From an uncultured Fibrobacterota bacterium (GTDB lineage: Bacteria; Fibrobacterota; Chitinivibrionia; Chitinivibrionales; CAYFVL01): 64,000 nucleotides of DNA. How positions within the stretch are numbered: the first letter of the stretch is position 1; every line of letters starts with the position of its first letter. The position numbers and the translations under genes are program-made. Below the pieces are notes generated by a model that worked only from the letters and a program-made list of their open reading frames with translations, was not told where the DNA came from and did not search any database. Below are positions 24,355-43,292 of this stretch, piece after piece. The stretch is taken from positions 44,892-108,891 of the forward strand of contig CAYQOU010000002.1 in NCBI GenBank assembly GCA_964419255.1, given 5' to 3'.

Positions 24355-24380
24355 AAAACCTCCTCAAGGAAATGAAAAAA

Positions 24381-27300
24381 TTAACTGCCCACAACCATAT
24401 CTTGCTTTAGTTTTCCTGTTAATGTGGTATGCAATAAGGCAACTTCCTCACCACTCTGGCGAAGCTTATTGCTGAATATCTCAAGGAAATTATAGGCAAT
24501 TTCCGGAATATCCATCAGCAACGTCTTTAATGAACTACGTTTTATGACATACACCTCACAATTCTCATTTGCTATTGCAGTTGCAGATCGAGGAGATTCA
24601 TTGAACAGGCCAATTTCTCCATAAGCCTCTCCTACCCGTATGATAGACAGTATAGTTCGAACCCCATTTTTCGCCTTAAAAATCTTGAGGCTTCCACTTC
24701 TAACAATATAAAGATGATCCGATATTTCTCCTTCTTTTGATACTATCGTCTCACGCGGGTAATTTACCAGTTCGGAGATCTCGGCCAGCCCCATTAGTTT
24801 CTCGGCCTGTACGTTACGAAACAGTATCGTTTTTTTGAAAAAAAGAACCGTATCGAGAAGTCTTAATGTTTCCATCTTTTTGTTCGTTTCTTCGAGTGAA
24901 TTTTCTATAATCTCCTCTGCAGCACGAGCTAAGTAGACATAAGGATCTGTTCGCAATGAAATCAGATAATCCTTCTGCGAATTGAGGAGCGCGTCGCTAT
25001 TCTTTTCCATACAAACACAGTACAGGGCACAGAGAGATATCCACTTGTTACGCGAACGGACAAAATAGTGAAGATCTGCATTCTCCGGCTCCTTGAAATG
25101 AAAATATTGTTTGGCATTTTTGCCGATCAATGCCCATGAACGAAATTCCAATATATGATAAATCAACGTCTTTAACCTGCTGTTTGGATATCTCCCCACA
25201 ATCTCAGCCAAATCGTGACGTTGTGAAGTGTCATTTAAATTTATATCCTTTTGCATTCGAGATACAACATCATCTTTTTCGATTAGTACCAATGTATTCA
25301 CCGCCCACTCGCAAACTCTAAAAATCTGTTCATGCAGGGCATCATCAAGAATGTCCCAGTGCGCATTCCTGTTTTTTTTCCTGTTCAACAGATACCACAT
25401 GTACCCATCCAGATACACCCCTTTAAGCTCATCGATGATCCAATACTCCAGACGCTGCTTTGCCGCATCATCCAAGTTAAACAGTTTCCTTGCTCCCTGC
25501 TTCTCCTCTAAAATTTTCTTCAGGACAGTTACAATCTCAAATAGCATCCGCCTGTTTTCAGCCAATTTTATGTATGCAACTAAAGTATGAATCAATGGAA
25601 TGCCCACAGTTTGGGCTACTTTCCCACAAATAGCGATATGATGTCGAGATAAGGTTTCAACTAATCCGAACATCTTTAACTGAGTAGCCGAAGATGAGGA
25701 TCGCAGGATGACTTCGACACTTTTTTTATATATCTGTGGAGAGGTGGATCTCAAATGATGGAGAATTTTCTGTTCCCATCTATCCGGCTGCAAAGTGCCG
25801 AGCAGATAAATACCGGCGGATCGCTTGTTTGTATTTCTGGATGAAAGCAAGCTTTCCAAATATCCAATAACAGTATACCGTTCCCTGTCATCCTGAGTAA
25901 GCCACAAATATTGTGCGGCTTCGATTTGAACTCTCATGGACGGTTCGAAAAGAAGTTCTTTAATTCGGTTTCGCAGCTGCCATTTCCAATGACAGTTCAT
26001 ATTATTAAGTGAATATATGGCATTAGCCCGAATCCGTGGCTCAGAACTATCGAGCAGGAGTTTTATAAAACCTTTGGTTTCATACCAGTAAAAGTTCTTC
26101 AGACACCTGGCGACGCTCTCTTTTACACTGAGCTCTTTTTCCTCATGATATATATCCACCATTATTCTCAAAGCCTGTCGTGTACCAAGGCTGCTTAATA
26201 TTTTTACAGCCAGGCCTCGAAGATCGGCATCTGGTGATTGAGAATACTCCCGCAATATCGACAACATCTTTTGATCGTACTGACTTCCGATTTTTGCTAT
26301 AATATCACTGATGTTGGAGTTGCCGGAAAAGGCTGGTACCAGACCTTGCATGTATGTCTTTCGTATCTTTGCTACCACAACTATCATACATGCCGCATCA
26401 ATAGCTATTATCATAAGTATTATCCAGGTATGCTGGCTTGCCACCATTAAAAACAGAGCTGTCAGAATAATGGCGGAGGGCTTTATTATACCTTCCAGAA
26501 ATGTCTTTGCCCGCCCTCTTTTTTCCCTTGATATGGCGGCAAAAAACATTTGATATACAGGCGAGAATGCATTTTCAAATACTACATGACGGGCAAACTG
26601 AAGAGCCACAAATCCAGCAAAAATAACTTGTAGTCTATTTACGGCTACCTGCTGTATGCCCAGAAGAATAATTGTACCTGAAAATAGGACAACCGGAAGA
26701 ATAAAAAATATTTTGGTGAAGCCGACCTTGCTTATAAGTCCCGGCATTACAAACCATAACCCAAGAATTGTAATTATTCCGTGAGTCAAGTAAAAATTGA
26801 ACTGAAAGGATGCTAGAGATTCTGGTAGAGGAAACCAGACATGGCATTTGTGCCAGAAGAGAAAATCCAACGCAAAAATGGCCAAAAATACAAGAAAGTA
26901 TAATGCAGATATCAGCTTGACCAGATTAATCGAGAGTACATCTTCAACCTCCCTGAGGATACCTCTTCGATTTGATTGATGTCGTATCCTTTCTTTTTTC
27001 AATAACTTGGTACTGTATCGGGTATGGGTATATCTTGATATCAGAAATGCAACCAGGTAGCATGCGGCCCATAGAAGAATCACCGCTTCCGTTTGTATAA
27101 TATCAAGGATAAATCCGCCAATCAACGCACCACTTAAACCACCAAGAAACCCCCAAGCCGCGATTTTGGGAAATTCCCTTTTAGCTTCACCGGTTTTATA
27201 TATATCATTGGCTAGTGTCCAGAAAGTAAGGAACATGACAGTTTTTGACAGATATGATACCGGATATATGGCCCAGAGTAGCAGATGTGGTATTTCGGTA

Positions 27301-27593
27301 TCGGACATGCCACTGATTTGCACTGTACCCAGAAATATGAGTATAAAGACGGTGGTTATGAAAAGGAGTGTGGAGAGAAGTTTAGCCCGGTTTACCTTGT
27401 CTATATTCTTGAAAAAAAAGGCAGGAAGCAGAAAGAGAAGAAGTCCGTTTACCAGATACAACTTGCTTAGGATTTGAGATCCGGCGACACTTACTACAAT
27501 AGACAGCGCCGCGGTTTCACCGACGATTGCTCCGGCAAATATAAATATAAACAGCGAAGCAAAAAGTCGTATGGGGGGAGAGGATCTGTTCAT
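24381..27593 (-). CDS. NTT(Npt1/2)-like MFS membrane domain + HEAT repeats + cyclic-nucleotide-binding domain
   Basis: ~11-12 TM N-terminus with FWTLANDIY...EAKREF and RGRAKTFLEG motifs; HEAT-like EPRIRANAI repeats; C-terminal cNMP domain GEAYGEIGLF...PRSATA. Confidence 0.85.
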   Translation of the reverse strand: MNRSSPPIRLFASLFIFIFAGAIVGETAALSIVVSVAGSQILSKLYLVNGLLLFLLPAFFFKNIDKVNRAKLLSTLLFITTVFILIFLGTVQISGMSDTEIPHLLLWAIYPVSYLSKTVMFLTFWTLANDIYKTGEAKREFPKIAAWGFLGGLSGALIGGFILDIIQTEAVILLWAACYLVAFLISRYTHTRYSTKLLKKERIRHQSNRRGILREVEDVLSINLVKLISALYFLVFLAIFALDFLFWHKCHVWFPLPESLASFQFNFYLTHGIITILGLWFVMPGLISKVGFTKIFFILPVVLFSGTIILLGIQQVAVNRLQVIFAGFVALQFARHVVFENAFSPVYQMFFAAISREKRGRAKTFLEGIIKPSAIILTALFLMVASQHTWIILMIIAIDAACMIVVVAKIRKTYMQGLVPAFSGNSNISDIIAKIGSQYDQKMLSILREYSQSPDADLRGLAVKILSSLGTRQALRIMVDIYHEEKELSVKESVARCLKNFYWYETKGFIKLLLDSSEPRIRANAIYSLNNMNCHWKWQLRNRIKELLFEPSMRVQIEAAQYLWLTQDDRERYTVIGYLESLLSSRNTNKRSAGIYLLGTLQPDRWEQKILHHLRSTSPQIYKKSVEVILRSSSSATQLKMFGLVETLSRHHIAICGKVAQTVGIPLIHTLVAYIKLAENRRMLFEIVTVLKKILEEKQGARKLFNLDDAAKQRLEYWIIDELKGVYLDGYMWYLLNRKKNRNAHWDILDDALHEQIFRVCEWAVNTLVLIEKDDVVSRMQKDINLNDTSQRHDLAEIVGRYPNSRLKTLIYHILEFRSWALIGKNAKQYFHFKEPENADLHYFVRSRNKWISLCALYCVCMEKNSDALLNSQKDYLISLRTDPYVYLARAAEEIIENSLEETNKKMETLRLLDTVLFFKKTILFRNVQAEKLMGLAEISELVNYPRETIVSKEGEISDHLYIVRSGSLKIFKAKNGVRTILSIIRVGEAYGEIGLFNESPRSATAIANENCEVYVIKRSSLKTLLMDIPEIAYNFLEIFSNKLRQSGEEVALLHTTLTGKLKQDMVVGS

Positions 27594-27608
27594 GACTAGA
27601 AAATAGTT

Positions 27609-27640
27609 AAAAAAAAGCGGATAGGTAAAAACCTATCCGC
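27609..27640 (-). terminator. Intrinsic terminator after the porin gene
   Basis: Minus strand GCGGATAGGT-TTTT-ACCTATCCGC followed by T8. Confidence 0.85.
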
Positions 27641-27668
27641 AAATCCCGAAAATATTTTTTGGATTACC

Positions 27669-28904
27669 TTAGAAACTATATGTTGCTGAAAAACGCGTAA
27701 ATATGTTGTCCAGGTCATTTCCGGAAAAGAGATTGGTAAAGGTATAAAAAACGTTTTCATTGACGACAGCATCGACTTTGAACCTGTTCTCGATGTTTAT
27801 GCCCATACCAAATCCGATCAGATCATCATCAGAGCCGGTAGATTCAGGGTTCTGGATCCATTGACCATCATCGTTACTGCTTGTCTGGTAAATCAGACTC
27901 TTCGTCCCTCCGATACGCCACACGAGCCAGTCAAAGATAATGTTTCTTTCGAGACCAAAGCTGACACGACCACCGAGTTCCTGTTGATCGATACCTTGAT
28001 CTTCGCGGTAGATTCCCTCTAAAGCGCTCCAGAAGAAACCACGGTCAATATTAAGGTTAATACCTATACCTCCCGCGACATCAATAAGCGTTCTATTCTC
28101 TTCTAAATTGATGACATCAACGCCAAGGTGAGGAACAAAATCCCCGTTTAATGTCGCCAGGGCACTAAACAGCCTGACATCACCGCGAAATGAAATCTGA
28201 TCATCGGAGATGGTCACCGGCTCGGCTTCTCCATCTTCGGCATCCACCACTAATCCTAAACCGGTCAGCTGAGATGTTCCCAAAGATATTTCAAGATTCA
28301 TTGTCTTTGCCACAGGCCAGTTTATGCCCACATTCCCCTGATACAGACGACTCTCGAGAGGCTCGTCAATAGTATCTGCCTCAAATTCCTGAAAGGCAAG
28401 ATACCCGCCGACTCCGATCATCCCTCCGTTTTTTAGTGCATAACCAACCATAAGATCCACTTTTCCAAGCGGCTCCGGTAGTTGGGCATCGGCATATTCA
28501 GGAAAGACTTTTCTGAATCTCTCTGTTTCCGGATTAATATAATCCAGCCTGTCATCATACCTGTTAAACACAGCCCCGATCGATAACATCGGGAATTGTT
28601 CAGCAGCTTCGGTCGTCTGATTTAGGGAGTAAGAGAGGATGCCGCCAAAATAGGGATTGATTGGATTCCATTCTCTGTCGAGATAGTTTTCCTGCGCGAG
28701 AGTATCAGTTGCCCTGTATACTCCAAGATCACCCATTAACATATTGGGAAAGACATTCACATTAGCCGGGTTTCGGAAAATACTGATGTCATCCATGTAG
28801 AAATTGTCTGTTCTTCCCATAGAAATGACGCGAGCTTTGGTTGCAAAGCTCGCGCATATTATTCCTGCAGTTAGAACCAGACATGTCGCTTTTTTCAAAT
28901 ACAT
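27669..28904 (-). CDS. Outer-membrane beta-barrel protein (putative porin)
   Basis: GGAGG RBS, signal peptide, N-terminal SMG...RNPAN hatch-like motif, amphipathic strands, terminal ATYSF. Confidence 0.8.
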   Translation of the reverse strand: MYLKKATCLVLTAGIICASFATKARVISMGRTDNFYMDDISIFRNPANVNVFPNMLMGDLGVYRATDTLAQENYLDREWNPINPYFGGILSYSLNQTTEAAEQFPMLSIGAVFNRYDDRLDYINPETERFRKVFPEYADAQLPEPLGKVDLMVGYALKNGGMIGVGGYLAFQEFEADTIDEPLESRLYQGNVGINWPVAKTMNLEISLGTSQLTGLGLVVDAEDGEAEPVTISDDQISFRGDVRLFSALATLNGDFVPHLGVDVINLEENRTLIDVAGGIGINLNIDRGFFWSALEGIYREDQGIDQQELGGRVSFGLERNIIFDWLVWRIGGTKSLIYQTSSNDDGQWIQNPESTGSDDDLIGFGMGINIENRFKVDAVVNENVFYTFTNLFSGNDLDNIFTRFSATYSF

Positions 28905-28958
28905 ACAAGTCCTCCGTAAGTAAGGCAACGCTTTAGTACTTCGATGTTTTTACCTTGC

Positions 28959-28987
28959 ATTATACTATAGCAGACATATCCCTGCAA
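28959..28987 (-). promoter_or_regulatory. Internal sigma70 promoter for the porin gene
   Basis: Minus strand TTGCAG-17bp-TATAAT. Confidence 0.65.
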
Positions 28988-28994
28988 GTATTTA

Positions 28995-30350
28995 TTACTG
29001 AGAAAAGACAAACGGATACACAACTTCAGTCACATCACCGGGCTTGTCGATTTTCTCAAAAACCCACCGTTTAACTCTGCTTACCACAAGGTTTTCGAAA
29101 GTTGGATCTCCCATGGTAGAGTTAACGACGTTGCAGAAAATAACCTTTCCAAACTCATCGATAGCGAATTTGACGGTTACCTTTCCTTTCAGTCCGGGTT
29201 TTTCACGCAGGCGTTTGTTATATGCATACCTGAGAGCAGCCAGATTCTGCATTACAACCCTCATGATGCTTGCCCTGCTCCGTCCGCCTGTTAGTGCGCC
29301 ACCTTTGACGAAATTAGGCTTGGACACTTTGAGCTCGCCACGTTTCTTGAGGTTCAGATTACCACCACCATCACCTCCCATGAGGCTTCCCAGCAGATCA
29401 TCAACACCACCTGATCCACCACCGAAACCACTACCGTAGCCGGCGCCGTATCCAATACCGGCTTCACCTTTACGTCCGGTACCACCGCCGCCACCTGATT
29501 TCAATCCACCGACACCAGATAGTACAGCGTCAATTCCACTTGCAAATCCGCCTTTACCAAAGATATCTGCAGATGCGACCGACTTTCCTTTGACAGCTCC
29601 TGAAACGATACCAAGAACACCTTTTCGTGTTACGCGTGCCCGCGGATCACCACCACCACCGGTTCTACCACCTGCACCCTTTTTCTTGGTAGGTTTGAGC
29701 TTCTTCTTTTCCGTTTTTATTTCTTCTTCGGGCTTCTTTTCCTCTTCCTTTTCCTTTTCGAGGGTCTCCGGAAGATCTTTAACGATCTTCGCCACACGCT
29801 CTTCAGGCATTTTTTCGAAGAAGTCAGTAGCCACTTCAACAATCTCACGGGTACTCATCCATGCGCCAAAAGCAAGACCGAGGATCAAACAGATAACTTC
29901 AAGGTTACGAAGTCGTGAGTCCTTTTTGATAACAAAAATATCACCACGTTCCTTCATCTTTTGGGCGTATTCTTCATCTGATAAAACGCGCCCATCCTCT
30001 TCTTCTTCCTCCTCATCATCCAACCTGTCTTGACTGGCAGAAGCCTCCTGCGGTTTTGAAACAGGAGCCGCAGGCCTTGAAGGCCGCCTGCTCTGAGTCG
30101 GCGCAGCGGCATGCTCTGATGCCGCCGGCTGTAGACTCACAAGCTCTATCACCGCTCCGACAGCCTCGAACTGGCTCTTCAGCGCGAGAGCTTCGCCTTC
30201 TTCTGCCTCTTTTCGGATACAGACAGATTTTCTGGTCAATGCATTGAGGACAGCATCCGTGCGATTTCCAGACCAGCGCGCGATTTCCTCCGCAATTGGA
30301 GTAGCCTGACGCGGATCAGGACACCTTTTAATAAGCACTTTATATTTCAC
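28995..30350 (-). CDS. TonB-like energy transducer with AgmX/PglI(GltG)-type C-terminal domain
   Basis: Cytoplasmic N-domain, one TM helix, K/E-rich then Gly-rich linker, C-terminal GRSRASIMRVV...YNKRLREKPGLKGKVTVKF...YPFVF. Confidence 0.85.
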   Translation of the reverse strand: MKYKVLIKRCPDPRQATPIAEEIARWSGNRTDAVLNALTRKSVCIRKEAEEGEALALKSQFEAVGAVIELVSLQPAASEHAAAPTQSRRPSRPAAPVSKPQEASASQDRLDDEEEEEEDGRVLSDEEYAQKMKERGDIFVIKKDSRLRNLEVICLILGLAFGAWMSTREIVEVATDFFEKMPEERVAKIVKDLPETLEKEKEEEKKPEEEIKTEKKKLKPTKKKGAGGRTGGGGDPRARVTRKGVLGIVSGAVKGKSVASADIFGKGGFASGIDAVLSGVGGLKSGGGGGTGRKGEAGIGYGAGYGSGFGGGSGGVDDLLGSLMGGDGGGNLNLKKRGELKVSKPNFVKGGALTGGRSRASIMRVVMQNLAALRYAYNKRLREKPGLKGKVTVKFAIDEFGKVIFCNVVNSTMGDPTFENLVVSRVKRWVFEKIDKPGDVTEVVYPFVFSQ

Positions 30351-30352
30351 GG

Positions 30353-30856
30353 TTACCCATCCCTTTCCATGACAGCAAAGTTCATATCGTTGTATCCAAC
30401 TTTACCACAGGTATTCATCACCTTGAATAATACATCGAAGGAGATGTTTTTGTCTACCTGGACGACGACCTTGCCCACCACCTGGTTTAGTGCCCCCATT
30501 TTCACCATTTCTTCCTCCTGAGAATATGCATCAGCCAGACGTTCTTCAAGCTTTGTAGCTATCGGATCGTGCTTGGTCTGCTCGATTCGCGCGATATCTT
30601 CAGTAGGGCAAATCGGCTGGTTATCGACCAGTAACATATCCTGTGTAACAGCAACCTGAAGGTTGACTTCCTGGGGTTTCTTCTTTGAGATCGAGTTCGG
30701 CAGAACAAGATTATCGGCATTCGTCAATACACTTCCATCCGCCGAATAACTCATAAGAAGGAACACCAGAATAATGGTGAACATATCCATCATGGATGTA
30801 ATGTTCAGCCCTTCAGGCCTTTTCTTTTTGGGGGCTCTTCCTCGTTGTTCAGCCAT
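30353..30856 (-). CDS. ExbD/TolR family protein (AglS-like)
   Basis: LNITSMMDMFTIILVFLL TM with Asp24; VQVDKNISF...VMNTC. Confidence 0.9.
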   Translation of the reverse strand: MAEQRGRAPKKKRPEGLNITSMMDMFTIILVFLLMSYSADGSVLTNADNLVLPNSISKKKPQEVNLQVAVTQDMLLVDNQPICPTEDIARIEQTKHDPIATKLEERLADAYSQEEEMVKMGALNQVVGKVVVQVDKNISFDVLFKVMNTCGKVGYNDMNFAVMERDG

Positions 30857-30859
30857 AGA

Positions 30860-31657
30860 TTAACCCCTTAGTTTAGCGATTGATATGTTTGGAAAATCCG
30901 CGGATCGCGCAGCATCCATTATCTGCACAATTTTATCGAACATCACCTCATTTTCAGCAGCAATGATGATGTCTTCCCCATCATCTGCATCCTTAAACCG
31001 CTCTTTTACCTTCATTAAACGGTTTTTCAGCTCATCATAGGCTGATAGAGGCTTCTTCACATATTCCGCAGGATTTCTGACCAGGATCATACGTCTCGGA
31101 TTAGTCAACGCGTAAACAGTATCTCCGACACTGATTTTTTCTATCGGATTTCCTTCTTCATCGTATAACGCTTCACCAAGTTTGGTATAATAGGTTTTCT
31201 TTACCTCCGAAAAATCATCGTTGGTAACATAAAGAAAGATATCATACCTCTCGTGAATAGTCATCGGACGATTAGTCTTGGGATGAAGAACCGGATCCTT
31301 CGACTTTGGATCGAACTTTACCGTAAATTCGGTATGGTCGTCCTTGGCTACATACTTGTGATATTCCTGATAAAAAATACTCGGCAAAAATCCGCCTTTT
31401 GCTCCTAAAGTAACAACCGAGTCTGTTACAACCGCAGTAAGAAGCAGTTTTTCTTCTTCTTCCTTCTGCGGAGGTTTTTTCACGGCCTTATCCGTTTGAG
31501 ATCCTCGAGCTTCAGGTAGCTTTATATCAATGACCGCGATTTTGGCGAACTCGGCCGAAAGGAGGAGCATAGGAATCAATACCACCATGAGATTCATGAA
31601 TGGCTTGAGATCCATTTCTTCCTCTACCCACTCCTTCTTTCTAATTTTTGATGCCAT
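30860..31657 (-). CDS. ExbD/TolR family protein (AglQ-like) with a large periplasmic insertion
   Basis: MDLKPFMNLMVVLIPMLL TM; C-terminal IIIAAENEVMFDKIVQIMDAAR. Confidence 0.85.
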   Translation of the reverse strand: MASKIRKKEWVEEEMDLKPFMNLMVVLIPMLLLSAEFAKIAVIDIKLPEARGSQTDKAVKKPPQKEEEEKLLLTAVVTDSVVTLGAKGGFLPSIFYQEYHKYVAKDDHTEFTVKFDPKSKDPVLHPKTNRPMTIHERYDIFLYVTNDDFSEVKKTYYTKLGEALYDEEGNPIEKISVGDTVYALTNPRRMILVRNPAEYVKKPLSAYDELKNRLMKVKERFKDADDGEDIIIAAENEVMFDKIVQIMDAARSADFPNISIAKLRG

Positions 31658-31690
31658 CGTTCGATTCCTTACAATTAAAGGTTTTCGCGA

Positions 31691-32320
31691 TTATTCTTCA
31701 ACGAGGTTAATCAACTTCGCTGTTTTTTCGTCCATTTCCTCAACAATCTTATCAGATTTCTGAGACAAAAGTCCCTGACAAAGAATACTGGGTATGGCAA
31801 CCAAAAGACCAAACAGTGTCGTGGACATAGCAACGGAAATACCGGTTGCCAGAGCCTGAGCACGCTGAGCCGCAGGTACGTTAGCAATAGCATCGAACGC
31901 CATCATAAGTCCAAAAATTGTTCCGGTCAGTCCCAACAAAGTTGAAAGGTTAGCCAGAGTATTGAGAATGGAGATGTTCTTTGTTATTGAGGGAGTTTCA
32001 GCCAGAAAAACCTCATCCACTGCCTTCTGCACCTGACGTGAACTCTTACCACGATTTTTCAGGATAGCAGTAACACCCTTGGCAAGAGGAGTACCCACAG
32101 AAGAGGAGTACTTTATCGCCTTTTCGTAGTCGCCTGCTTTTAAATACTTGCTTATCCCGGCCATAAAAGATCCACTGCTGGTTCCGCACTTGAAGAACAG
32201 GAACCAGACACGTTCCAACACAAGACCCAGATTAGCAAAACCGATTAACAGAATAGCCCACATCGTGAAACTTCCTGGAGATGTAAAACCGTCAACGAGA
32301 AACTTGAACAGCTGTTGCAT
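31691..32320 (-). CDS. MotA/TolQ/ExbB proton-channel protein (AglR-like)
   Basis: LGLTGTIFGL and GISVAMSTTLFGLLVAIP; three TM helices. Confidence 0.93.
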   Translation of the reverse strand: MQQLFKFLVDGFTSPGSFTMWAILLIGFANLGLVLERVWFLFFKCGTSSGSFMAGISKYLKAGDYEKAIKYSSSVGTPLAKGVTAILKNRGKSSRQVQKAVDEVFLAETPSITKNISILNTLANLSTLLGLTGTIFGLMMAFDAIANVPAAQRAQALATGISVAMSTTLFGLLVAIPSILCQGLLSQKSDKIVEEMDEKTAKLINLVEE

Positions 32321-32512
32321 CTTCTACCCCTTTCGTTCATAAAAACGTTTAAGCTTGGTGATCCGTTACATTTTTTTGAATTATTGATTTTTTTTAGAGT
32401 GAATCATCCACTCATTTTGTAGCTAAAAGAAGTTTTCCGGTTCTTTACTTTTTAAAAATCTCCTTCCTTCTTACCTTTTTTACCCATATTGTACGATAAC
32501 ATCAGCACTCAA

Positions 32513-35500
32513 TTAGTTTCCAGCAGCAAGATTTTCCTTCTTTTCCTTAAGTTCGCTTAGCTTCTCTTGCTCCTTGCGGATTTCACGAAGTGCGTCTGCT
32601 TCTATACTTCTAAGTTGCGTCAGTTTATCTTCAAGCGGAATGTTCAACTGAACGATTTCCTGAATACGAGCCAGGTTTCTGTTCAAACGCTCATCTATAA
32701 AACCGTGCTTTTGCTCCTCCTGCTGACCTTCAGCAACCTGCTGAACAGGTTCGACAGTCTCGACATCTAAAGCTTCAGATCCGGGATTGATATACTGCAC
32801 ACGCTCTTCTATTTTCGCCAGCCACTTATTGTCTGAAATCCCCAGCTCAGCAGCGGCATATAGACCTTCTTCATATTTGGGCAAAGATGCATCAACCGCT
32901 TCGAGCTGCTTTTCTTCCAGCACCTGACGATATGCCTCCTGCTCCTCCGGGGAAAGCCCGGGAGGTATCGGTGCGCTGACAAATATTCTTCCGATTTCCT
33001 CAAAAAGATCACCCTTGCGGAAAGCCATTTCCATAAACTTATCGGTGGCTTTTTCGGTCCATTCATTCTTAAGGTTCTGCTTGTTTGATGTTTCAACTAC
33101 CCAGCGAAATTTCTCCTGCGCCTTAACATAAAACTTCTCCAGCCCCGAAACGATCTTGATCTTGGACGCGACCTGCTGATCTTTACTTCCGAAAAGAGTC
33201 TGATTCCTGAAACTGTGAGCCATATCAAAGAAACTCTTACCGATCATATAGGTCGAGCGAAGAGTCCACTCGCCCACACCAAGTTCGATGGCATTTGCAT
33301 AATACTTAAGTACCGGCTCAAGCGCCTTTGTCTTCTCCTTAAGCCTTTGCTGAACCTGTTGTTCCGAACTCCCCGACAATTCGATGTCGGAAAACCGCTT
33401 ATGCTTTGCCTCACCCATAATGTAATATGCACGAGAAACTGCCGCTATATCTATAGCAGCCTTCTTCTTAAACTTTTCGTACACATCGATAGCTGTCTGG
33501 GCATTCTTCTCGGTTTGCGCAATATCATCCATCTTATAGAATGCTTCAGCCGCACGTACAAGCGCCATGACCTGCTTTGAGCGATCATCCGGAAACTTCT
33601 CGGCATACCGTGAGAATGCATCCGCCATCTCACCAGGCTTTTCCATCTTCTCATAGCAAAATCCAATGGAATAATACCCTTCGGCAGCGTACTCATCTTC
33701 CGGATATTTTTCAGCCAAGACCGTATATGCCCGTATCGCATCCTCATAGAGATCACCTTTTTCGTAAATCAGACCTGCATTGTATAATGCCTGGGGTGTT
33801 CTTTTATCCTGAGGATACTTTTTGGCAACCAATTCATTAACCTGTCCGGCTTTTTCGTACAGATCCACCTTCTGGTAGGCATCGGAGGCGGCAGACAAAC
33901 TGGGAATAGCATAGTCGGCCTCAGGGACCTTGTTTGCGGCGAGTTCATATATCTTACCGGCATCCTCGAAACGTTCAAGCTTCTTGTAATTTTCCGCCGA
34001 TCGAACATAGGCCTTTTCCCGCAAATCAGATTTGGGGAATTTATCGCCCAGTTCAGAAAACACCTCCGCCGCTTTAGCCAAGTCTTTCGCCTCTTCATAG
34101 CTGGTGGCTGCCTCAAACCACGCCCGATCTGCCACTTTACTCTTCGGATACTTCATCTGCACAGTCTTATACACCTCCGCTGCGCCGGGCAGGTCACCAC
34201 TTTTCTTAAGTTCGGTTGCTTTCTTGAAAATTGCACCCGCGGCAAGATCCAGTATTTCCTGGTACTCTTTACTTTCTGGCTTTTCCTTTTCAAGCAACTT
34301 GTTATAACTTCCCAACGCCATTTCGTAGTTACCCGAACTTGCGTAGCTGTTAGCTAACATACGCAAAGATTTGGGCCCGAATTCAGAGTTGGGATAGCGG
34401 TCGACGATCTTTTTGAACTCTGTTATCGCCGCATCATAAGCCTTGGCCGCATAGTGGACGTTGGCGGCAAGATACAAAACTTCAGCAGACGTTTCCGAAT
34501 TTGGGAAGCGTTGCTGATAGGTTTGTATATAGGAGAGAAATTTCTGAGTCGCCGAGGTGTTGTATGCAGCAGAATCGCTCAACCCATCTTTTGCCTGCTC
34601 CTTCTTACGAAGATTATCGTATGCGACTATAGCATTATATCCTGCATCCTCCTGAGAGACGGCCACACCCTTTTTTCCACCTTCCTTAAGAACGCGTTCT
34701 TTTTCCTCTTCGTCAAGCATCATGGTATCCAGTTCCACTTCGTACTTCGGATAGGTGGAAAGGTCCTGACGTGCAACATAATCATACGCTTCGGCGGCAT
34801 CCTCATACTGTCCAAGCATATTGTAGATTTCAGCTACATTGTACTTAAACTCATATACCTTCCATTTGTCGTCAGGAAATTTGGTAAAGTATTCGGTGTA
34901 GCGAGTGAGTGCTTTCTGATACAGATCTTTTTTCTTTGTTTTCTGAGCATCTGCATGGTAATGAACAGGTATCTGAGCAAGCGCTTTGCGCACCTCTTCC
35001 TTAGCTTTGGCTATCGCCGGCTTGTCATCAGAGTTGTTCTGGGCCCACTGAGAATCTTCCCAGTAATTGTCGACCAGATTTTCTCTTTCGACATTTGCTT
35101 CGTCATACTTTTTCTTGATCACCAGAGCGGCCACCAGCATCTGCTGAGCAGTTGGAGCATCTTTATAGAGCGGAAACGAGCGTATTGCGGAACGCAAAGA
35201 CTTTAAAGCATCGTCGTATTGGCCGTGGTTGTAGTTTTTCATACCCACTGTATACAAGACATAGGCCTGATATGGCTTGCTGCCGACGCGATCGAAGAAA
35301 TCCAGAGCTTTCTGTGCGCCGTCGGGCATGTCGGAAAAGCAGATCCCCAGAAACTCCAGCGCTTCATCGCGAAGATCTTTTTTGACGTATGTACCGTTAT
35401 CGCAGTTGTCGATGTACTTATAAAACAGCTCAGCCGCCTTATCAAACTCGGCCCGGTTGTAGTAAATTTCCGCTTTACGATAGTGCGCCATTTCCTGCAC

Positions 35501-36202
35501 TTCGATGTTGACCTCACCCATATTGATCTTCTCTATATGTTTCAGAGCACAGGTGAAATCACGATCCATGAAACAGAACTCGGCCAGTCGAAAGTGGGCT
35601 GCAGAAGCACGAATACTTCTAGGCCATCTTTTGACGATCTCCTGAAACGCATCTTTTGAACCACCCAACTCGCCCTGAAGCATCAGGATAGCGCCTATCT
35701 GGTAGTATCCTTCATCGGCTTTCTCAAAGTCGGGATACTGCTCGACGCTGGCGCGGTAAAATTCCAGAGGCTTGCTGTAGTCGGGAACCGGGTTTACCGG
35801 CTCAGGCCCCGAGGGGTTTCGTTCCCATCGGTCCATGTCTTTGTTATATTTCTCCTGAGCCTGGATGTAGTCGTCTCGAGCCTGATCGTAGTACAACTTG
35901 GACAAGGTGTACATAACATCGGCGCACCGCATGCTCTTTTTGCCCTGACATCCCTGATACAGCTTCTCGAAACGATCGATTGTTACGCTGATAGACTGCT
36001 TGGGAGCGGCATTTTTATTTATTTTTTCCTGGGCCTTCTTCTGTATAACAGCTTTCTTCTTTTTTAATCTCTCGATTTTCCGAAGCAGCTCTTCCCTCTT
36101 TTTGTTTGCATCCGCTCCGTTGACATCACTGACTACGCTAATTTGGAAACAGAATGCCGCCATCAGCAAACCGAATCCTAAAGACTTCATGGACCGTCGC
36201 AT
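32513..36202 (-). CDS. Large exported TPR protein (GltD/AgmU-like)
   Basis: Signal peptide; many TPR_6/BamD-like repeats (YPxS/FPxS turns); PPGLSPEEQEAYRQVLEE motif near the C-terminus. Confidence 0.85.
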   Translation of the reverse strand: MRRSMKSLGFGLLMAAFCFQISVVSDVNGADANKKREELLRKIERLKKKKAVIQKKAQEKINKNAAPKQSISVTIDRFEKLYQGCQGKKSMRCADVMYTLSKLYYDQARDDYIQAQEKYNKDMDRWERNPSGPEPVNPVPDYSKPLEFYRASVEQYPDFEKADEGYYQIGAILMLQGELGGSKDAFQEIVKRWPRSIRASAAHFRLAEFCFMDRDFTCALKHIEKINMGEVNIEVQEMAHYRKAEIYYNRAEFDKAAELFYKYIDNCDNGTYVKKDLRDEALEFLGICFSDMPDGAQKALDFFDRVGSKPYQAYVLYTVGMKNYNHGQYDDALKSLRSAIRSFPLYKDAPTAQQMLVAALVIKKKYDEANVERENLVDNYWEDSQWAQNNSDDKPAIAKAKEEVRKALAQIPVHYHADAQKTKKKDLYQKALTRYTEYFTKFPDDKWKVYEFKYNVAEIYNMLGQYEDAAEAYDYVARQDLSTYPKYEVELDTMMLDEEEKERVLKEGGKKGVAVSQEDAGYNAIVAYDNLRKKEQAKDGLSDSAAYNTSATQKFLSYIQTYQQRFPNSETSAEVLYLAANVHYAAKAYDAAITEFKKIVDRYPNSEFGPKSLRMLANSYASSGNYEMALGSYNKLLEKEKPESKEYQEILDLAAGAIFKKATELKKSGDLPGAAEVYKTVQMKYPKSKVADRAWFEAATSYEEAKDLAKAAEVFSELGDKFPKSDLREKAYVRSAENYKKLERFEDAGKIYELAANKVPEADYAIPSLSAASDAYQKVDLYEKAGQVNELVAKKYPQDKRTPQALYNAGLIYEKGDLYEDAIRAYTVLAEKYPEDEYAAEGYYSIGFCYEKMEKPGEMADAFSRYAEKFPDDRSKQVMALVRAAEAFYKMDDIAQTEKNAQTAIDVYEKFKKKAAIDIAAVSRAYYIMGEAKHKRFSDIELSGSSEQQVQQRLKEKTKALEPVLKYYANAIELGVGEWTLRSTYMIGKSFFDMAHSFRNQTLFGSKDQQVASKIKIVSGLEKFYVKAQEKFRWVVETSNKQNLKNEWTEKATDKFMEMAFRKGDLFEEIGRIFVSAPIPPGLSPEEQEAYRQVLEEKQLEAVDASLPKYEEGLYAAAELGISDNKWLAKIEERVQYINPGSEALDVETVEPVQQVAEGQQEEQKHGFIDERLNRNLARIQEIVQLNIPLEDKLTQLRSIEADALREIRKEQEKLSELKEKKENLAAGN

Positions 36203-36272
36203 TAGTCTTTTCTCCCTTTTTTGTTTTAGACCCCAAATGTGTTTTTAACCCACCTTAAAGCACTTTCATCCG

Positions 36273-38639
36273 TCACTCAGTACTCTGTTCCAATTCGCGC
36301 CTCAGGCGTTCAATCTCTTCATCAAGTTTTTCCTGCTTCTCACGTTCTTTTTCAATGAGCTGCTGTTCGCGTTGGCCGCCAACCATCTTGACAGCCTTTG
36401 CCAACGCATACTCCGCATCACTGATAATCTGTTCCTTGCGTCGGAAAAACTCTTTGTTCTCTTCAACTAACAGCTTGAAATTAAAATAACTTTTTGACTC
36501 CTGTGAGAATTCGTCAAAATGAATCTTCAAGTTTTCACGCTCGGCAATAGTTGCATCACTAGGCCTTCGTAGAGCGTTTTTCTTGATATCCTGAGAAATC
36601 GGAGCGAACTCTCTGAGGTAGCCCTGAAATCTCTTTGTCTGATACTCCAGATCATCCACATCCGCATAATCATTCTTGGCAGCATCAAGGCAGATTTCAA
36701 GAGCGTCGATAGCTTCCTGATTGCGTCCCTGCAGCATAAGAGAATAGCCAAGAACAAGATACCCCTCCGGTATAAGCGCAGACTCCGAATGAGCACTCAT
36801 CATACGCTGAATCGTTTTCATCGCCTCCTCCGGACGATTAACCTTTATCCAGGACCATGCAACCCCCAGAAGCGCTTCATCTCCATACGGTGAGCCTTCG
36901 GGTACATTGCTGAAAGCTTCAACGGCTTTCCTTAATTCGACCTGCTCAAAATAAAGCTGACCCAGCTTGTTATTTGCGGCATCCAGCAACAATAATTCGG
37001 CCTGATCGGTGGTCGTGTCCTTCACAATATTTGTGAGGTTTCGTACCGCTGCGTTAGTTTTGTCGTTTTCGATATTTATAATCGACAAGGTATACTGGGC
37101 ATACAAATACGTTGGTGCGTCCGGCTTGATTCGTCCGAGGAACTGCTCAGCGGCATTATAGTTTTTTCTCTGGAAGTGAATTTCTCCCGCCAGATAATCA
37201 GCATCGGGAATGATTTCACTTTCTGGATATAGATTTGTTATAAATGCATGATTTTTCAAGGCATCCTCAAACTTGCCCTCGCGGTAATCCAGATTCTGAA
37301 TACCGTATAACATCTTGGGACGAACATCGGAGGTTGTATACTCGGCCAAGCCCTCTTTGTATATTTCCCGCGCGATATCGTTCATATCCAGGAAACGATA
37401 ACAGTTTCCGAGGTAAAGTGTAGCCATATCGTTGAGGTGGAAATTGGGGAAAAGTGAAAGGACTTTCCCGAAAGCAAAGGATGCTTCCCAGTACTTACCA
37501 GCCAAATACAACCGCATTGCCTCATTGTACGCATTCATCGGCGCAAGAATCAGACGATCATACAATCGCTTCGATTCCCGCTGCTCCCTGGTTGGACCGA
37601 AATCGGTACCCAACTTCACCATCATGGTCAAACCACGCTCTGTTTCATTAATACTGTAGCCAATATGGGCATCGAAGTTTACATAATTGATCATTTCCGG
37701 TAAAGGGTATATAAGATTAAGGTTAAATCCCGCATATGGTATGTTATTGTTGGCCCATCCGCATTTGACCCACACCTGCGGAATAAACTCCATCTTAAAA
37801 TGCGCACTGAAACGAGGGACTTTCTTTAAGATGCTCCCATCTGTTAAATCGTCAAATTCACCCTCATCGATGCGCGATTTCCACATATCCACGAAAGCAT
37901 TGTCAAGCACAAATTCACAGTTGGCGATAAGACGGTCGTTGAGCCAGGCGTATCTCAGACCCGCCCTCATACGAGTGGTGGTCTGCTGGCGCTCGGTGCC
38001 ACTTTCGGTATCCCACTCCAACATGGCCGGAACAATATCCTGTAGACTGATAGAAACACCCAGATCTCCGAAACGATAATGATCCAGAGGGTTAAAGTAG
38101 GCACCGACATCCAGCCCAAAGCCCCATCGACTGTCCGAATTGAACTGATTTTGTCGCAACACCTTCGGGTTTGCCCCAATCATAAACCAGGGTAACAATC
38201 TCACGCCATAATGACCGACAAACCAGATATCGCCATAGCGAAGAATGTCACCGGGCACCAGACCACTTCCCCCCTGGCCGACCTCCATCTGATCTATAGA
38301 ACTACCGGTTCCAATAACGGTAAGCCCAGCGGTCTGATTTAAACGGATAGGGGTAAGAAATGAAAACTGCTGATACCCCAGATTGTCATCCAGATCCAAA
38401 TCCCATCGATACAACCCTCCACCCAGATAGAATTGATCCACCCGGTAGGTGAGAGCTGGATTAATCATAGCAGATGTGAAATCTGATATATCCTGTATGT
38501 AATCCGCTTGAAAGTATGGTGCGGAATAGCCTCCATTGGGGGTAAGTGCATGAGCAGAGGATATTATGCACCCCAGGGAGAGGAGACACAGCATGGGAAA
38601 GCGCATCGCGCTACGATATGTATTCTGAACTGATCTCAT
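36273..38639 (-). CDS. PorV/FadL-like beta-barrel fused to C-terminal TPR repeats
   Basis: Signal peptide; D..SAMINPA motif and amphipathic strands (~aa 30-350); then TPR repeats and a coiled-coil tail. Confidence 0.75.
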   Translation of the reverse strand: MRSVQNTYRSAMRFPMLCLLSLGCIISSAHALTPNGGYSAPYFQADYIQDISDFTSAMINPALTYRVDQFYLGGGLYRWDLDLDDNLGYQQFSFLTPIRLNQTAGLTVIGTGSSIDQMEVGQGGSGLVPGDILRYGDIWFVGHYGVRLLPWFMIGANPKVLRQNQFNSDSRWGFGLDVGAYFNPLDHYRFGDLGVSISLQDIVPAMLEWDTESGTERQQTTTRMRAGLRYAWLNDRLIANCEFVLDNAFVDMWKSRIDEGEFDDLTDGSILKKVPRFSAHFKMEFIPQVWVKCGWANNNIPYAGFNLNLIYPLPEMINYVNFDAHIGYSINETERGLTMMVKLGTDFGPTREQRESKRLYDRLILAPMNAYNEAMRLYLAGKYWEASFAFGKVLSLFPNFHLNDMATLYLGNCYRFLDMNDIAREIYKEGLAEYTTSDVRPKMLYGIQNLDYREGKFEDALKNHAFITNLYPESEIIPDADYLAGEIHFQRKNYNAAEQFLGRIKPDAPTYLYAQYTLSIINIENDKTNAAVRNLTNIVKDTTTDQAELLLLDAANNKLGQLYFEQVELRKAVEAFSNVPEGSPYGDEALLGVAWSWIKVNRPEEAMKTIQRMMSAHSESALIPEGYLVLGYSLMLQGRNQEAIDALEICLDAAKNDYADVDDLEYQTKRFQGYLREFAPISQDIKKNALRRPSDATIAERENLKIHFDEFSQESKSYFNFKLLVEENKEFFRRKEQIISDAEYALAKAVKMVGGQREQQLIEKEREKQEKLDEEIERLRRELEQSTE

Positions 38640-38678
38640 TATTGTTGCCTTTACCTGTTTTGCAGGTGCTGTTAAGTA

Positions 38679-40175
38679 CTACTTGATCGGAACCACTTCA
38701 ACACGTCGGTTCTTTGCACGTCCATCAGCTGAATTATTCGAAGCAATCGGCTTTGTCTCTCCATATCCCCGTGCAATCAAGCGTCCCTGACCGATACCGC
38801 GCATGACCAAATAATTCATTACCGTTTTTGCCCTGTCGTAGGAGAGGGCCATGTTATATTTATCGCTTCCCTGACTGTCGGTGTGCCCGGCGATTTCGAC
38901 TTTCACATGAGGATAAGCCTCAAGGCTGTTATAGACTCGCTCGAGTACATAGTAAGATTCTTCGAGAAGCTCAGCGGAAGCGGTCTTGAAATTGACACCT
39001 TTGAGAATCAGAGCCTGTTTAATCTCCTGTGGTTTCTCATCCGGACAGCCATCCTGATCTTTATAGCCGTTTACCGTCTCGGGATTATTCGGGCAACCAT
39101 CCTGAGCATCCGGAATACCATCTTTATCGTTATCGAGGTCGGGACAACCGTCTTCGTCCTGGAAACCGTCACGATCTTCGGGAGTGTTGGGACACTCGTC
39201 CTGAGTATCGTATATGCCGTCTTTATCGTTATCGAAATCGGGACAACCGTCTTCGTCCTCAAATCCATCGTTGTCCTCAGCAACTTCGGGACATTGATCG
39301 ATATCATCGGGAATACCGTCACCATCCTGATCCGTACTCAGCTCCTCAACCATTTGCTGAGAGATCAGACCAATATCCGTACCGTTTTCCCCCTTACCCT
39401 TGAGATAAGAGATACTTTCCAGAAAGTAATTATACTCGGGATGACCGGCAGAGATAAAGATCGGATCTTTAGAAATATTGGTCTGATTTACAACCGCACC
39501 GGCATTGAAGGGAAGACGATTGTTGTAAATATTATTATGTATGATACGAGTTCTTTTTGCTCCCGGAGCGATATAAATACCATACTGCTTGTTGCGGAAC
39601 ATGATATTGTTGCGAACAAGAACCTCCGTGCGATGGGCAGCAAAGATTCCGCAGTAGCCGTTTTCCAGAATAACATTGTGGTCTATGGCGGTACGTGTCC
39701 CCCGAACGGATTCCAGAAAGATGCCGGTCCATTCGTTGCGGTAGATAACATTGTTTTTGATATCTGGCAGAGAGATCAACGCGTGAATACCGGCACCTTT
39801 GTTATCTACGATCAGGTTTCGTTCGATGACCGGCCGGGTGTTCTTACACAGTATACCGGTTGTTCCGTTTCTGATGTTAAAGTTGGCGATAACCGCGCCA
39901 TCCGCGCCTATGATACACGGGCCTTTTCGCTGTCCGTCGATAATGGTTTTGTTTTTATCCTGCCCGAGTAAAACCACGTTATCGGTCAGTGCGATATTCT
40001 CTTTATACACACCATTGACAACATAGACCGTGTCACCTTCATTCGCCTCACCAAGCGCAATATGAATATTGGGGAAGTCGTGAGGAACCACCAGTTTTCT
40101 TCCGGCATCTGCTTTAGGCGCCCAAAACAAAACAACGCCTAACAATAATAGTAAAGGTAATGATCGTGTGGACAT
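38679..40175 (-). CDS. OmpA-family protein: right-handed beta-helix + TSP type-3 repeats + OmpA C-terminal domain
   Basis: Start MSTRSL at 40175; GDTVYV..GVYKE and NxIxxN..GI repeats; DxDxDG..D..DxCP repeats; IAGHTDS...LSYDRA...GYGE...NRRVE. Confidence 0.9.
   Translation of the reverse strand: MSTRSLPLLLLLGVVLFWAPKADAGRKLVVPHDFPNIHIALGEANEGDTVYVVNGVYKENIALTDNVVLLGQDKNKTIIDGQRKGPCIIGADGAVIANFNIRNGTTGILCKNTRPVIERNLIVDNKGAGIHALISLPDIKNNVIYRNEWTGIFLESVRGTRTAIDHNVILENGYCGIFAAHRTEVLVRNNIMFRNKQYGIYIAPGAKRTRIIHNNIYNNRLPFNAGAVVNQTNISKDPIFISAGHPEYNYFLESISYLKGKGENGTDIGLISQQMVEELSTDQDGDGIPDDIDQCPEVAEDNDGFEDEDGCPDFDNDKDGIYDTQDECPNTPEDRDGFQDEDGCPDLDNDKDGIPDAQDGCPNNPETVNGYKDQDGCPDEKPQEIKQALILKGVNFKTASAELLEESYYVLERVYNSLEAYPHVKVEIAGHTDSQGSDKYNMALSYDRAKTVMNYLVMRGIGQGRLIARGYGETKPIASNNSADGRAKNRRVEVVPIK
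39039..39332 (-). repeat. Three tandem ~99-bp coding repeats (TSP3 Ca2+-binding)
   Basis: 33-aa unit DxDxDGIxDxxDxCPxxxExxxGxxDxDGCPD; near-identical DNA blocks GGACAACCGTCTTCGTCCT. Confidence 0.85.
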
Positions 40176-40263
40176 AATCCCTGTTCTTATTAAGGGCTTA
40201 AATTTTAGAATTATGAATACAAATGAGCTCAGAGAAAGGGAGTACAAGTAAATGGCAGTTATG

Positions 40264-40292
40264 AAAATAACTTCATTGAAAAAGCATGTCAA
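40264..40292 (-). promoter_or_regulatory. Sigma70 promoter of the OmpA-TPR-Exb operon
   Basis: Minus strand TTGACA-17bp-TATTTT. Confidence 0.65.
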
Positions 40293-40369
40293 GTTCTGCT
40301 ACCTTTGGGTATGCCCCCCAGCTACCCCCTTATCCGGTCAGCCTTCTCTTAATTAAATTGCTGTGTTCT

Positions 40370-40459
40370 TTTAATCGCAAGCATTTTCTTGTCTCTGCGA
40401 TAAAAATAAGCAAAAAGGTTACGTTATCCACCTGCGCTTTATTGTTATCGCAACAATAA
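40370..40459. promoter_or_regulatory. Candidate regulator binding sites
   Basis: TTTAATCGCA-16-TGCGATAAAA inverted pair and TTATTGTT-ATCGC-AACAATAA palindrome. Confidence 0.4.
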
Positions 40460-40725
40460 TTGCACCCTGTAGCTTCAGGATGCATTATCCGCCTGCCGTT
40501 TACCGCCCCCCTGGTCTCAACACCGTGTCATTGCTGAATATTTTCAATAACACCTTATCTAATTTACACGATTACAACCGAAAATGCCTGTGTTTTTTGA
40601 AAAAAAAACCAATTTATAGCCGATGGCCCCATTTGTATGCCGAAAATGGTCGACTACAGGAGATATTAACCCCCCTCTTTCTTTGCGACTGCCCCGCTAC
40701 CGGCCAAATATGCAGGAAGAAATCA

Positions 40726-42519: not shown

Positions 42520-42639
42520 ATGGTGGAAAAATAATTTCTGCGCATCGTCTCAATGCCCCCATATTGTGTTCGTATGATGTGCAATGTGCTATTTTACCTT
42601 ATGATCGGTTATAGTAGTTCTCTGAAACAGGAGTAATAC

Positions 42640-43200: not shown

Positions 43201-43238
43201 TTCGGCACACAAGCAGTGCCGCCCTGCCGGGCGTACAT

Positions 43239-43272
43239 AAAAAAAGGAGACCACATACCCGGTCTCCTTTTT
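43239..43272. terminator. Bidirectional intrinsic terminator
   Basis: A-tract-GGAGACC-loop-GGTCTCC-T-tract between convergent genes. Confidence 0.85.
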
Positions 43273-43292
43273 CACATTACTTTGATGGTTTT

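Follow-up and report, generated by a model that had tools for sequence, protein, structure and literature searches.

A probable Chitinivibrionales counterpart of the Agl/Glt core-complex cluster of Fibrobacter succinogenes

Introduction

It has long been asked how crystalline cellulose or chitin is bound and broken down by Fibrobacter and its relatives, which use neither cellulosomes nor Sus-like systems. A second question, standing since 2011, is what the Agl/Glt core complex does in bacteria other than gliding myxobacteria. Here, we analyzed a cluster of eight genes in a stretch of 64,000 nucleotides (hereafter, the window: contig CAYQOU010000002.1 of assembly GCA_964419255.1, positions 44,892 to 108,891 of the forward strand) from an uncultured bacterium of the order Chitinivibrionales in the phylum Fibrobacterota. 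This cluster joins the two questions, being near-universal in the phylum and having products that are abundant in the envelopes and vesicles of F. succinogenes.

The most similar described locus is that of F. succinogenes S85, where the reported gene order is FSU_2396 (OmpA), FSU_2397 and FSU_2398 (tetratricopeptide repeat, TPR), FSU_2400 (ExbB), FSU_2401 and FSU_2402 (ExbD), and FSU_2403 (TonB); FSU_2404 has been described as a protein of the PopA superfamily and a likely hexamer (PMC12228718). These eight genes are reported to be highly expressed and have been tied to outer-membrane vesicles and to cellulose (PMC8092306, PMC6851124). According to published descriptions, FSU_2396 and FSU_2397 occur in a vesicle complex together with a fibro-slime protein and cellulases, and several products of the cluster were detected under all growth conditions. 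The cluster was also described as encoding homologs of the Agl/Glt "core complex": in the analysis of Luciano 2011 (PMC3169522), the F. succinogenes homologs fall in the clade of the glt/agl genes of Myxococcus xanthus, and the core complex, of unknown function, is reported as duplicated in Fibrobacteres. The paper on PopA (PMC12228718) names neither TonB nor gliding (0 occurrences).

A preliminary description of the window, made from its sequence alone, mentioned an OmpA-TPR-TPR-ExbB-ExbD-TonB locus in F. succinogenes and regarded the window cluster as a candidate for an uncharacterised system. That locus exists and is colinear with the window cluster; the term "uncharacterised" does not hold, as publications on this counterpart date back to 2011. 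To a system already described piecemeal in F. succinogenes, the window contributes a member that belongs to another order and bears a few traits specific to its lineage. We consider it probable that the cluster is the Chitinivibrionales counterpart of FSU_2396-FSU_2404 and represents the Agl/Glt core complex as it occurs in Fibrobacterota, and that it works as a Glt-core-type force transducer on an outer-membrane platform, moving surface complexes rather than importing substrates through TonB-box gating. This picture joins a Glt-type motor to PorV-like and PopA-like outer-membrane proteins, pieces that were earlier described separately, and it yields concrete, testable subunit contacts.

Organization of the eight-gene cluster

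The listing of open reading frames (ORFs) gave eight consecutive co-oriented genes on the minus strand between positions 27669 and 40175 of the window. In the direction of transcription, and with their likely F. succinogenes counterparts, they are:

38679..40175, minus strand: secreted beta-helix/TSP3/OmpA-domain protein, 498 aa, from Pfam and NCBIfam matches; counterpart FSU_2396
36273..38639, minus strand: PorV/PorQ-like outer-membrane barrel with a GltC-like TPR/long-helix region, 788 aa, from AlphaFold2 (AF2), Foldseek and hhalign; counterpart FSU_2397
32513..36202, minus strand: GltD-like giant periplasmic TPR scaffold, 1229 aa, from hhalign; counterpart FSU_2398
31691..32320, minus strand: TolQ/ExbB/AglR-type channel subunit, 209 aa, from PF01618 (91.8 bits) and a tree; counterpart FSU_2400
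30860..31657, minus strand: long ExbD/TolR-like subunit, 265 aa, from PF02472 (48.2 bits); counterpart FSU_2401
30353..30856, minus strand: short ExbD/TolR-like subunit, 167 aa, from PF02472 (57.0 bits); counterpart FSU_2402
28995..30350, minus strand: GltG-type TonB-like transducer, 451 aa, from NF033768 (83.4 bits); counterpart FSU_2403
27669..28928, minus strand: PopA-family porin-like outer-membrane protein, 419 aa (412 aa from the ATG at 28907), from AF2 and Foldseek; counterpart FSU_2404

The ORF listing, Pfam and NCBIfam confirmed the eight co-oriented genes and the domains that the preliminary description had named. The gaps between the genes measure 2-192 nt and contain no minus-strand ORF of at least 40 aa, and an Rfam scan of positions 24000-43500 returned no match to an RNA family. 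For the first gene, the most likely start codon is the ATG at 40175 and a longer version starting with TTG at 40292 is unlikely, since the former yields a plain signal peptide and agrees with ortholog lengths of 497-502 aa. The PopA-like gene probably starts at the ATG at 28907, which gives 412 aa. Plus-strand ORFs found inside these genes (38883-39971 and 34454-35206, for example) were set aside as mechanical ORFs on the strand opposite to real genes.

Conservation across Fibrobacterota

We found a full-length ortholog of the 1229-aa TPR protein in all 31 relatives. Across the phylum, 78 of the 81 sampled genomes presented an ortholog (E <= 1e-60), and the three genomes without one are 92-98% complete. 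In the scan of contigs, the lone 1229-aa query matched no relative but an alignment query did.

Gene order was checked by tblastn and with hidden Markov models (HMMs) built from the orthologs. In a first set, the 20 related loci were all colinear: ten carry all eight genes, seven end at a contig edge and three (L028-L030, family f9) carry the last six genes without the adjoining OmpA and barrel-TPR genes. A second set comprised 57 loci with matches, many of them from genomes also present in the first set. The full order was observed in 30 of these loci, 23 were colinear but cut by contig ends, four lacked the first two genes despite the presence of upstream sequence, and none was rearranged. 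Eight loci were examined from four further families of the phylum; seven of them carry the eight genes in order, and the remaining one presented no match for the last gene. The synteny check proposed in the preliminary description returned the same order across the phylum. All related loci of sufficient length repeat this order, so the arrangement is not due to chance. The eight genes form one operon and conserved unit. The absence of the OmpA and barrel-TPR genes from the family f9 loci indicates that the constant core consists of the GltD-like, ExbB, ExbD, ExbD, TonB-like and PopA-like genes.

All matches listed in the homolog search with the barrel-TPR protein shared >50% identity with it and came from Chitinivibrionales and Fibrobacterota metagenomes, and the PopA-type last gene was met only in Fibrobacterota among the loci examined. 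Clusters resembling a PorV/PorQ barrel with TPR were also pointed to in Zixiibacteriota, Eiseniibacteriota and Elusimicrobiota (score 0.90); these are leads only.

We then compared the cluster to that of F. succinogenes S85. The two clusters, both from Fibrobacterota, encode matching sets of eight protein types in identical order, but the sequence identity of S85-type proteins to those of the window is low (~28% for the giant TPR protein). The TonB-like protein of the window is ~140 aa longer than its F. succinogenes counterpart, and the window cluster is followed by a gene for a HEAT/cyclic-nucleotide-binding (cNMP) membrane protein, unlike Fibrobacter-type loci. Raut 2015 reported masses of 55.97, 83.84, 146.67, 32.44, 18.24 and 32.45 kDa for FSU_2396, FSU_2397, FSU_2398, FSU_2401, FSU_2402 and FSU_2403. 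The masses computed for a locus of another family (L107) are, in the same order, 55.97, 83.87, 146.72, 32.45, 18.24 and 32.45 kDa. Agreement with F. succinogenes within 0.6 kDa was obtained for six of seven proteins in L107 and for seven of seven in L112, where the ExbB mass is 23.04 kDa against the published 23.06 kDa; the mismatch of the L107 ExbB is explained by the choice of the longest ORF. Gene order, protein families and the mass match in a locus of another family thus point to orthology between the window cluster and that of F. succinogenes.

The GltD-like scaffold and the GltG-type transducer

The profile of the 1229-aa protein aligned with the protein found at the GltD position of a Myxococcota glt locus over 913 columns (hhalign probability 100%; E = 3.6e-39). 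The Myxococcota protein lies between GltC and GltE, and this position suggests that it is GltD. By this profile match, the giant TPR protein of the window is a GltD homolog.

The TonB-like protein presents a match to the AgmX/PglI C-terminal domain of NCBIfam (NF033768; 83.4 bits for a cut-off of 40), while its Pfam TonB_C match is just below the cut-off (22.9 bits) and the TonB C-terminal model gives 34.3 bits. The GltG model matches residues 177-451 with 98 bits; this is far below the equivalog cut-off of 650, so the protein is no GltG equivalog. As a control, the TonB protein encoded on contig C81 of the same genome presented no NF033768 match, and three other TonB-like proteins of the genome (contigs C23, C56 and C67) did match the AgmX/PglI model. 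The transducer is composed of a 75-aa N-terminal cytoplasmic domain, an acidic linker, one membrane helix (residues ~151-170), Lys/Glu-rich and Gly-rich stretches, and the AgmX/PglI-type end domain. The N-terminal domain (residues 1-75; 30126-30350) and the acidic linker were present in each of the 28 Chitinivibrionales-type rows but absent from all six rows of other families. The only match of this domain is a sub-threshold likeness to the C-terminal domain of ribosomal protein L7/L12 (E = 0.043), which is a lead only. Across 34 rows, we observed no conserved His in the membrane helix; in TonB and TolA, this His is described as part of the motor-binding SHLS motif (PMC12204202). A complex prediction for residues 65-840 of the GltD-like protein with residues 236-451 of the transducer, run without controls, scored 0.19 against a mark of 0.32 and is evidence neither way.

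The motor subunits

The three motor genes were assigned by Pfam to MotA/ExbB (PF01618; 91.8 bits) and ExbD (PF02472; 48.2 bits for the long and 57.0 bits for the short protein). One ExbB gene followed by two ExbD genes is also the order of the AglRQS-like triple of Myxococcota (L120). When the HMM of the cluster ExbB was searched against a Myxococcota genome with seven paralogs, the AglR-like paralog scored 164 bits and the others at most 64 bits. In a tree of 26 ExbB-type rows, the window protein groups with its orthologs (support 89/99). Their clade falls outside the TolQ+ExbB clade (support 85/78), which holds the TolQ of the genome, whose gene adjoins that of TolB, and the ExbB proteins of the genome that are linked to TonB-dependent receptors (TBDRs). 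The preliminary description had named a grouping with ordinary Tol-Pal or TonB-ExbBD components as a result that would speak against it; in this 26-row tree, the window ExbB groups with neither the TolQ nor the ExbB proteins of the genome. Its reading of the cluster as an Agl-Glt/Tol-Exb-like machine is upheld by the GltD homology, the GltG-type tail and the presence of ExbB with two ExbD genes.

The two ExbD proteins differ in their membrane residue. The short ExbD (30353-30856) keeps the membrane Asp (D24) in 53 of 54 orthologs, and the long ExbD (30860-31657) presents Asn (N22) where this Asp is expected in 45 of 55 orthologs. An AglQ/AglS-like pair from Myxococcota carries Asp in both members, so that both TolR-like subunits keep it there, unlike in the window.

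Outer-membrane components

The first gene encodes a protein with a signal peptide and Pfam matches to OmpA (76.9 bits), Beta_helix (70.1 bits), NosD (48.8 bits) and TSP_3 (33.8 bits), and with an NCBIfam match to a TraB-like TSP3+OmpA region (150 bits). The TSP3 repeats are of the calcium type. There was no barrel among its domain matches, and the protein is predicted to be periplasmic and to bind peptidoglycan.

The AF2 model of the 788-aa protein (mean pLDDT 81, the predicted local distance difference test) presents a beta-barrel (residues ~70-347), with residues 351-787 forming TPR and long helices. Foldseek returned chain F of entry 8gl6 (E = 3e-9; TM(target) 0.56, the template-modeling score) beside many TPR proteins. 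We take this chain to be PorV; the title of the entry names only the type IX secretion system (T9SS) complex. The PorV/PorQ family of NCBIfam matched residues 53-235 with 26.3 bits, below its cut-off of 90. Compared to PorV/PorQ of the T9SS, the barrel is similar but is fused to ~440 residues of TPR and long helices. The TPR part aligned with a Myxococcota GltC over 255 columns (hhalign probability 97.3%; E = 2e-11), and the NCBIfam GltC model gave 17 bits against a cut-off of 450. The mature N-terminus of the barrel-TPR protein (residues ~33-52; ~38484-38543) is nearly invariant in 31 orthologs and yet modeled with pLDDT <50: G36, G37 and D46 are invariant, and residues A40-A45 are conserved at >=90%. 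This conserved disordered peptide may serve as a docking strand.

The last gene product was modeled as a barrel (pLDDT 85). Its top three Foldseek matches were all chains of Bdellovibrio PopA (best 9gf0; E = 2e-9 to 9e-9; TM(target) 0.68-0.70), and its matches to FadL, PorV and chitoporin were four to five orders of magnitude weaker (E ~1e-4 for FadL and chitoporin). The NCBIfam PopA family gave 37.8 bits, below the cut-off. These models suggest a PopA-like fold, although PopA of Bdellovibrio bacteriovorus, the best fold match, shares only 14-15% identity with the window protein. The PopA fold is a 16-strand barrel with a plug, and members of the superfamily are described as radial oligomers around a central lipid chamber. 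The PopA family is reported to enclose a patch of lipid; the same source describes a plugged lumen and liposome swelling results that argue against small-molecule transport by PopA (PMC12228718). A 393-aa gene that follows the GltG-like gene in a proteobacterial core locus (L093) was considered as a PopA-like gene and rejected, as its product is unlike the window protein (hhalign probability 0.3%).

Elsewhere in the genome, there are four true PorV-family matches above the cut-off and 15 T9SS-type C-terminal domains above the cut-off. Separately, a distant core-like locus of Candidatus Raymondbacteria (L101:18952-20921) presents a TonB-like gene followed by two genes for proteins with T9SS C-terminal sorting domains.

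Comparison with Agl-Glt, Tol-Pal and TonB systems

Features common to the window cluster and Agl-Glt (as well as Agl-Nfs, its paralog, and the core complex) are a TolQ-like gene grouped with two TolR-like genes, a GltG-type transducer and a GltD-like giant TPR protein; a GltC-like TPR region may be a further one. Unlike in Agl-Glt, the GltC-like part is fused to a barrel in the window cluster, and the PorV-like, PopA-like and OmpA/beta-helix outer-membrane parts are unlike those of Agl-Glt. The eight proteins gave weak matches or none to the other Glt models that appeared (GltJ, 17 bits), the rest of the genome not having been searched for further gliding components.

The cluster resembles Tol-Pal in combining a motor with a single-pass transducer, a peptidoglycan-binding OmpA-type domain and YbgF/CpoB-like TPR units, but it contains no TolB, and its OmpA protein carries a plain signal peptide with no evident lipobox. 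With TonB-ExbB-ExbD systems it shares the MotA/ExbB and ExbD families and a TonB-type C-terminal fold; it differs from them by the lack of a TBDR, the presence of two unlike ExbD genes and a transducer helix without a conserved His. The preliminary description had seen no TBDR, SusD, TolB or Pal in the cluster. Indeed, none of the eight proteins matches TBDR/Plug, SusD or TolB models, and the OmpA domain matches Pal only below the cut-off (79 vs 125 bits).

The genome encodes these other systems elsewhere. Its Tol-Pal lies on contig C16, where a TolB-like gene (C16:52699-53880) has a gene for TolQ and one for an OmpA-domain protein as neighbors. We also counted 13 Plug-domain matches and 12 MotA/ExbB matches in the genome, with ExbB genes beside TBDR genes on contig C59. 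The window cluster is separate from Tol-Pal and from the ExbB systems of the genome.

Proposed mechanism and alternative explanations

We infer the subunit stoichiometry, the contacts and the output by analogy with AglR5QS-GltG-GltD-GltC, as described in PMC11761067, and with Tol/Exb motors. The TolQ/AglR-type channel and a mixed TolR-like pair (one subunit with Asp and one with Asn) would convert proton flow into movement, which would pass to the single-pass GltG-type TonB-like protein. The flexible periplasmic part of this transducer and its AgmX/PglI end domain would reach the GltD-like TPR scaffold. The scaffold would in turn couple to a phylum-specific platform made of the barrel with its GltC-like arm, the PopA-family protein and the OmpA-anchored beta-helix protein. 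The output would be the mechanical handling of material anchored in the outer membrane, namely the positioning, moving or releasing of surface complexes for glycan degradation and adhesion. We favor such handling because of the published presence of FSU_2396 and FSU_2397 in the vesicle complex mentioned above and because of the PorV-type barrel. A more specific version, which we regard as doubtful, is that the PorV-like barrel-TPR protein and the lipid-trapping PopA-family oligomer form the outer-membrane end of a proton-driven Glt-type motor. Fibrobacterota would employ this motor to carry or release their surface-anchored complexes for polysaccharide degradation and adhesion, either on the cell or in the form of vesicles, and the GltG-type end domain would dock onto the N-terminal peptide of the barrel protein (residues ~33-52). 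If true, this would be the long-sought mechanical engine behind cellulosome-free fibre degradation.

Several observations weigh against the force-transducer reading. The outer-membrane platform is not constant, since the first two genes are missing from the loci of family f9, and the barrel-TPR protein found elsewhere in the genomes of this family is only 23-26% identical. The PorV and PopA assignments rest on predicted folds, as the family sequence scores are below their cut-offs. TPR proteins readily match one another, which makes the likeness to GltC no more than suggestive. The 26-row tree does not resolve the fork between the window ExbB clade and the AglR-like protein. None of the eight proteins matches the model of a separate GltE (NF033758; E <= 0.01), which is present in the Myxococcota locus and in a proteobacterial core locus, and the FHA domain of GltG was not found by Pfam on the window transducer. 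Finally, the induction by cellulose reported in F. succinogenes is small (1.2-1.7-fold), so a housekeeping role in the envelope fits as well as a glycan-specific one.

A housekeeping role of this kind would be fulfilled if the cluster were a second Tol-Pal-like system for envelope tethering and vesicle control: the motor and the TonB/TolA-like protein would regulate how the outer membrane is tied to peptidoglycan by the OmpA and barrel-TPR proteins, the PopA-like oligomer would shape the membrane, and the output would be outer-membrane stability and vesicle release. The part list does parallel TolQ, TolR, TolA, Pal and CpoB, with TPR proteins that match YbgF/CpoB (145 and 81 bits) and an OmpA domain that matches Pal with the 79 bits given above. 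The near-universal presence in the phylum is what a housekeeping role predicts, the PopA family is described as enclosing a lipid patch, and the true Tol-Pal genes on contig C16 are flanked by genes for a barrel-TPR paralog and three OmpA-domain proteins. Yeoman 2021 also proposed a role of FSU_2396-2404 in vesicle formation, but this link, as published, consists of expression and co-occurrence only. Moreover, a complete Tol-Pal is already present in the genome, the window ExbB falls outside the TolQ clade and the cluster offers no TolB-like partner. We therefore judge this explanation possible yet unlikely, and place it close behind the force-transducer reading.

Energized import of glycan fragments appears weaker still, and we find it improbable. 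Under this explanation, the TonB-like protein would open the PopA-like or a PorV/FadL-like barrel and chito- or cello-oligosaccharides would pass to the periplasm and then to the neighboring ATP-binding cassette (ABC) transporter. Raut 2019 reported that FSU_2400-2403 are raised on cellulose and proposed TonB-dependent uptake of cellodextrins, and the fold of the last gene product has a weaker likeness to FadL and chitoporin (E ~1e-4). However, the cluster has no plug-bearing TBDR, the PopA lumen is described as plugged with liposome swelling against small-molecule transport by PopA itself, the end domain of the transducer is of the GltG type and its membrane helix has no conserved His. Giant TPR scaffolds are not known to play a part in TonB uptake, and the cluster is kept in lineages that live on different substrates, several F. 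succinogenes products being reported in all growth conditions. The preliminary description had argued for import from the adjacency of sugar ABC genes, and genes for a sugar-binding protein and permeases do lie downstream. This argument is weak: in the window these genes lie beyond a 1070-aa gene and a terminator-like hairpin, and of 20 related loci, some of them cut short, only 6 have a solute-binding-protein gene adjoining the cluster. The missing TBDR, the plugged PopA, the GltG-type end domain and this loose link to ABC genes are what make import the weaker explanation.

The core that the cluster and Agl-Glt have in common could also suggest a machine that moves the cell along chitin or cellulose fibers, as Agl-Glt moves Myxococcus. 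Luciano 2011 argued that the core alone is insufficient for motility and that most of its carriers are no gliders. There is neither a separate GltE nor an FHA domain in the eight proteins (GltF, GltH-K, CglB, AglZ and MglA were not searched for). Gliding on the core alone is unlikely, and we give this explanation very little credence. The force-transducer reading thus remains the one that we favor.

Flanking genes and transcription signals

Three further features were annotated around the cluster:

40264..40292, minus strand: promoter-like site TTGACA-17-TATTTT upstream of the first gene, consensus match only
27617..27640, minus strand: terminator-like hairpin directly 3' of the last gene, with a 10-bp stem (6 GC pairs) followed by T8, consensus match only
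24381..27593, minus strand: polytopic membrane protein of 1070 aa carrying HEAT repeats and a cNMP-binding domain, possibly associated with the cluster, from domain matches and many N-terminal hydrophobic segments

Promoter-like sites are about as frequent in the region as in shuffled sequences (30 observed vs 28.2 expected). Such sites being no commoner than in shuffles, the promoter and terminator matches count by their position only. The upstream neighbor of the cluster is guaA (40726-42519). Downstream, the 1070-aa HEAT/cNMP gene comes directly after the cluster in many loci, some of them from two other families; the membrane part of its product presents a likeness to the TLC ATP/ADP transporter that is below the threshold (E = 0.011) and represents a lead only.

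Related gene sets elsewhere in the genome

The genome contains further genes that resemble parts of the cluster. Beside Tol-Pal on contig C16 (C16:36000-55900; L116), we observed a 767-aa barrel-TPR paralog and three OmpA-domain genes, with a 1217-aa TPR gene and a Crp-type cNMP regulator nearby. A further barrel-TPR paralog is located at C5:33628-36018.

A second Glt-core-like set was found at C23:11000-30900 (L115). It comprises two TPR genes (1151 aa and 1004 aa), ExbB, two ExbD genes and a 347-aa TonB-like gene of the AgmX/PglI type, and downstream of it, on the same strand, lie a Wza-like, a Wzc-like, a methyltransferase and two glycosyltransferase genes. Among the 16 relatives that have the Wza-like gene, 12 present it on the same contig and strand, 4.6-5.0 kb past the paralogous TPR pair; in the other four, it lies on a different contig. 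This arrangement recalls the Nfs system of Myxococcus, which is described as handling exported spore-coat polymer (PMC3858216). A third set, at C81:10884-13278 (L117), comprises ExbB, two ExbD genes and TonB, and its ExbB groups with the core-like proteins of the C23 type (support 93/93).

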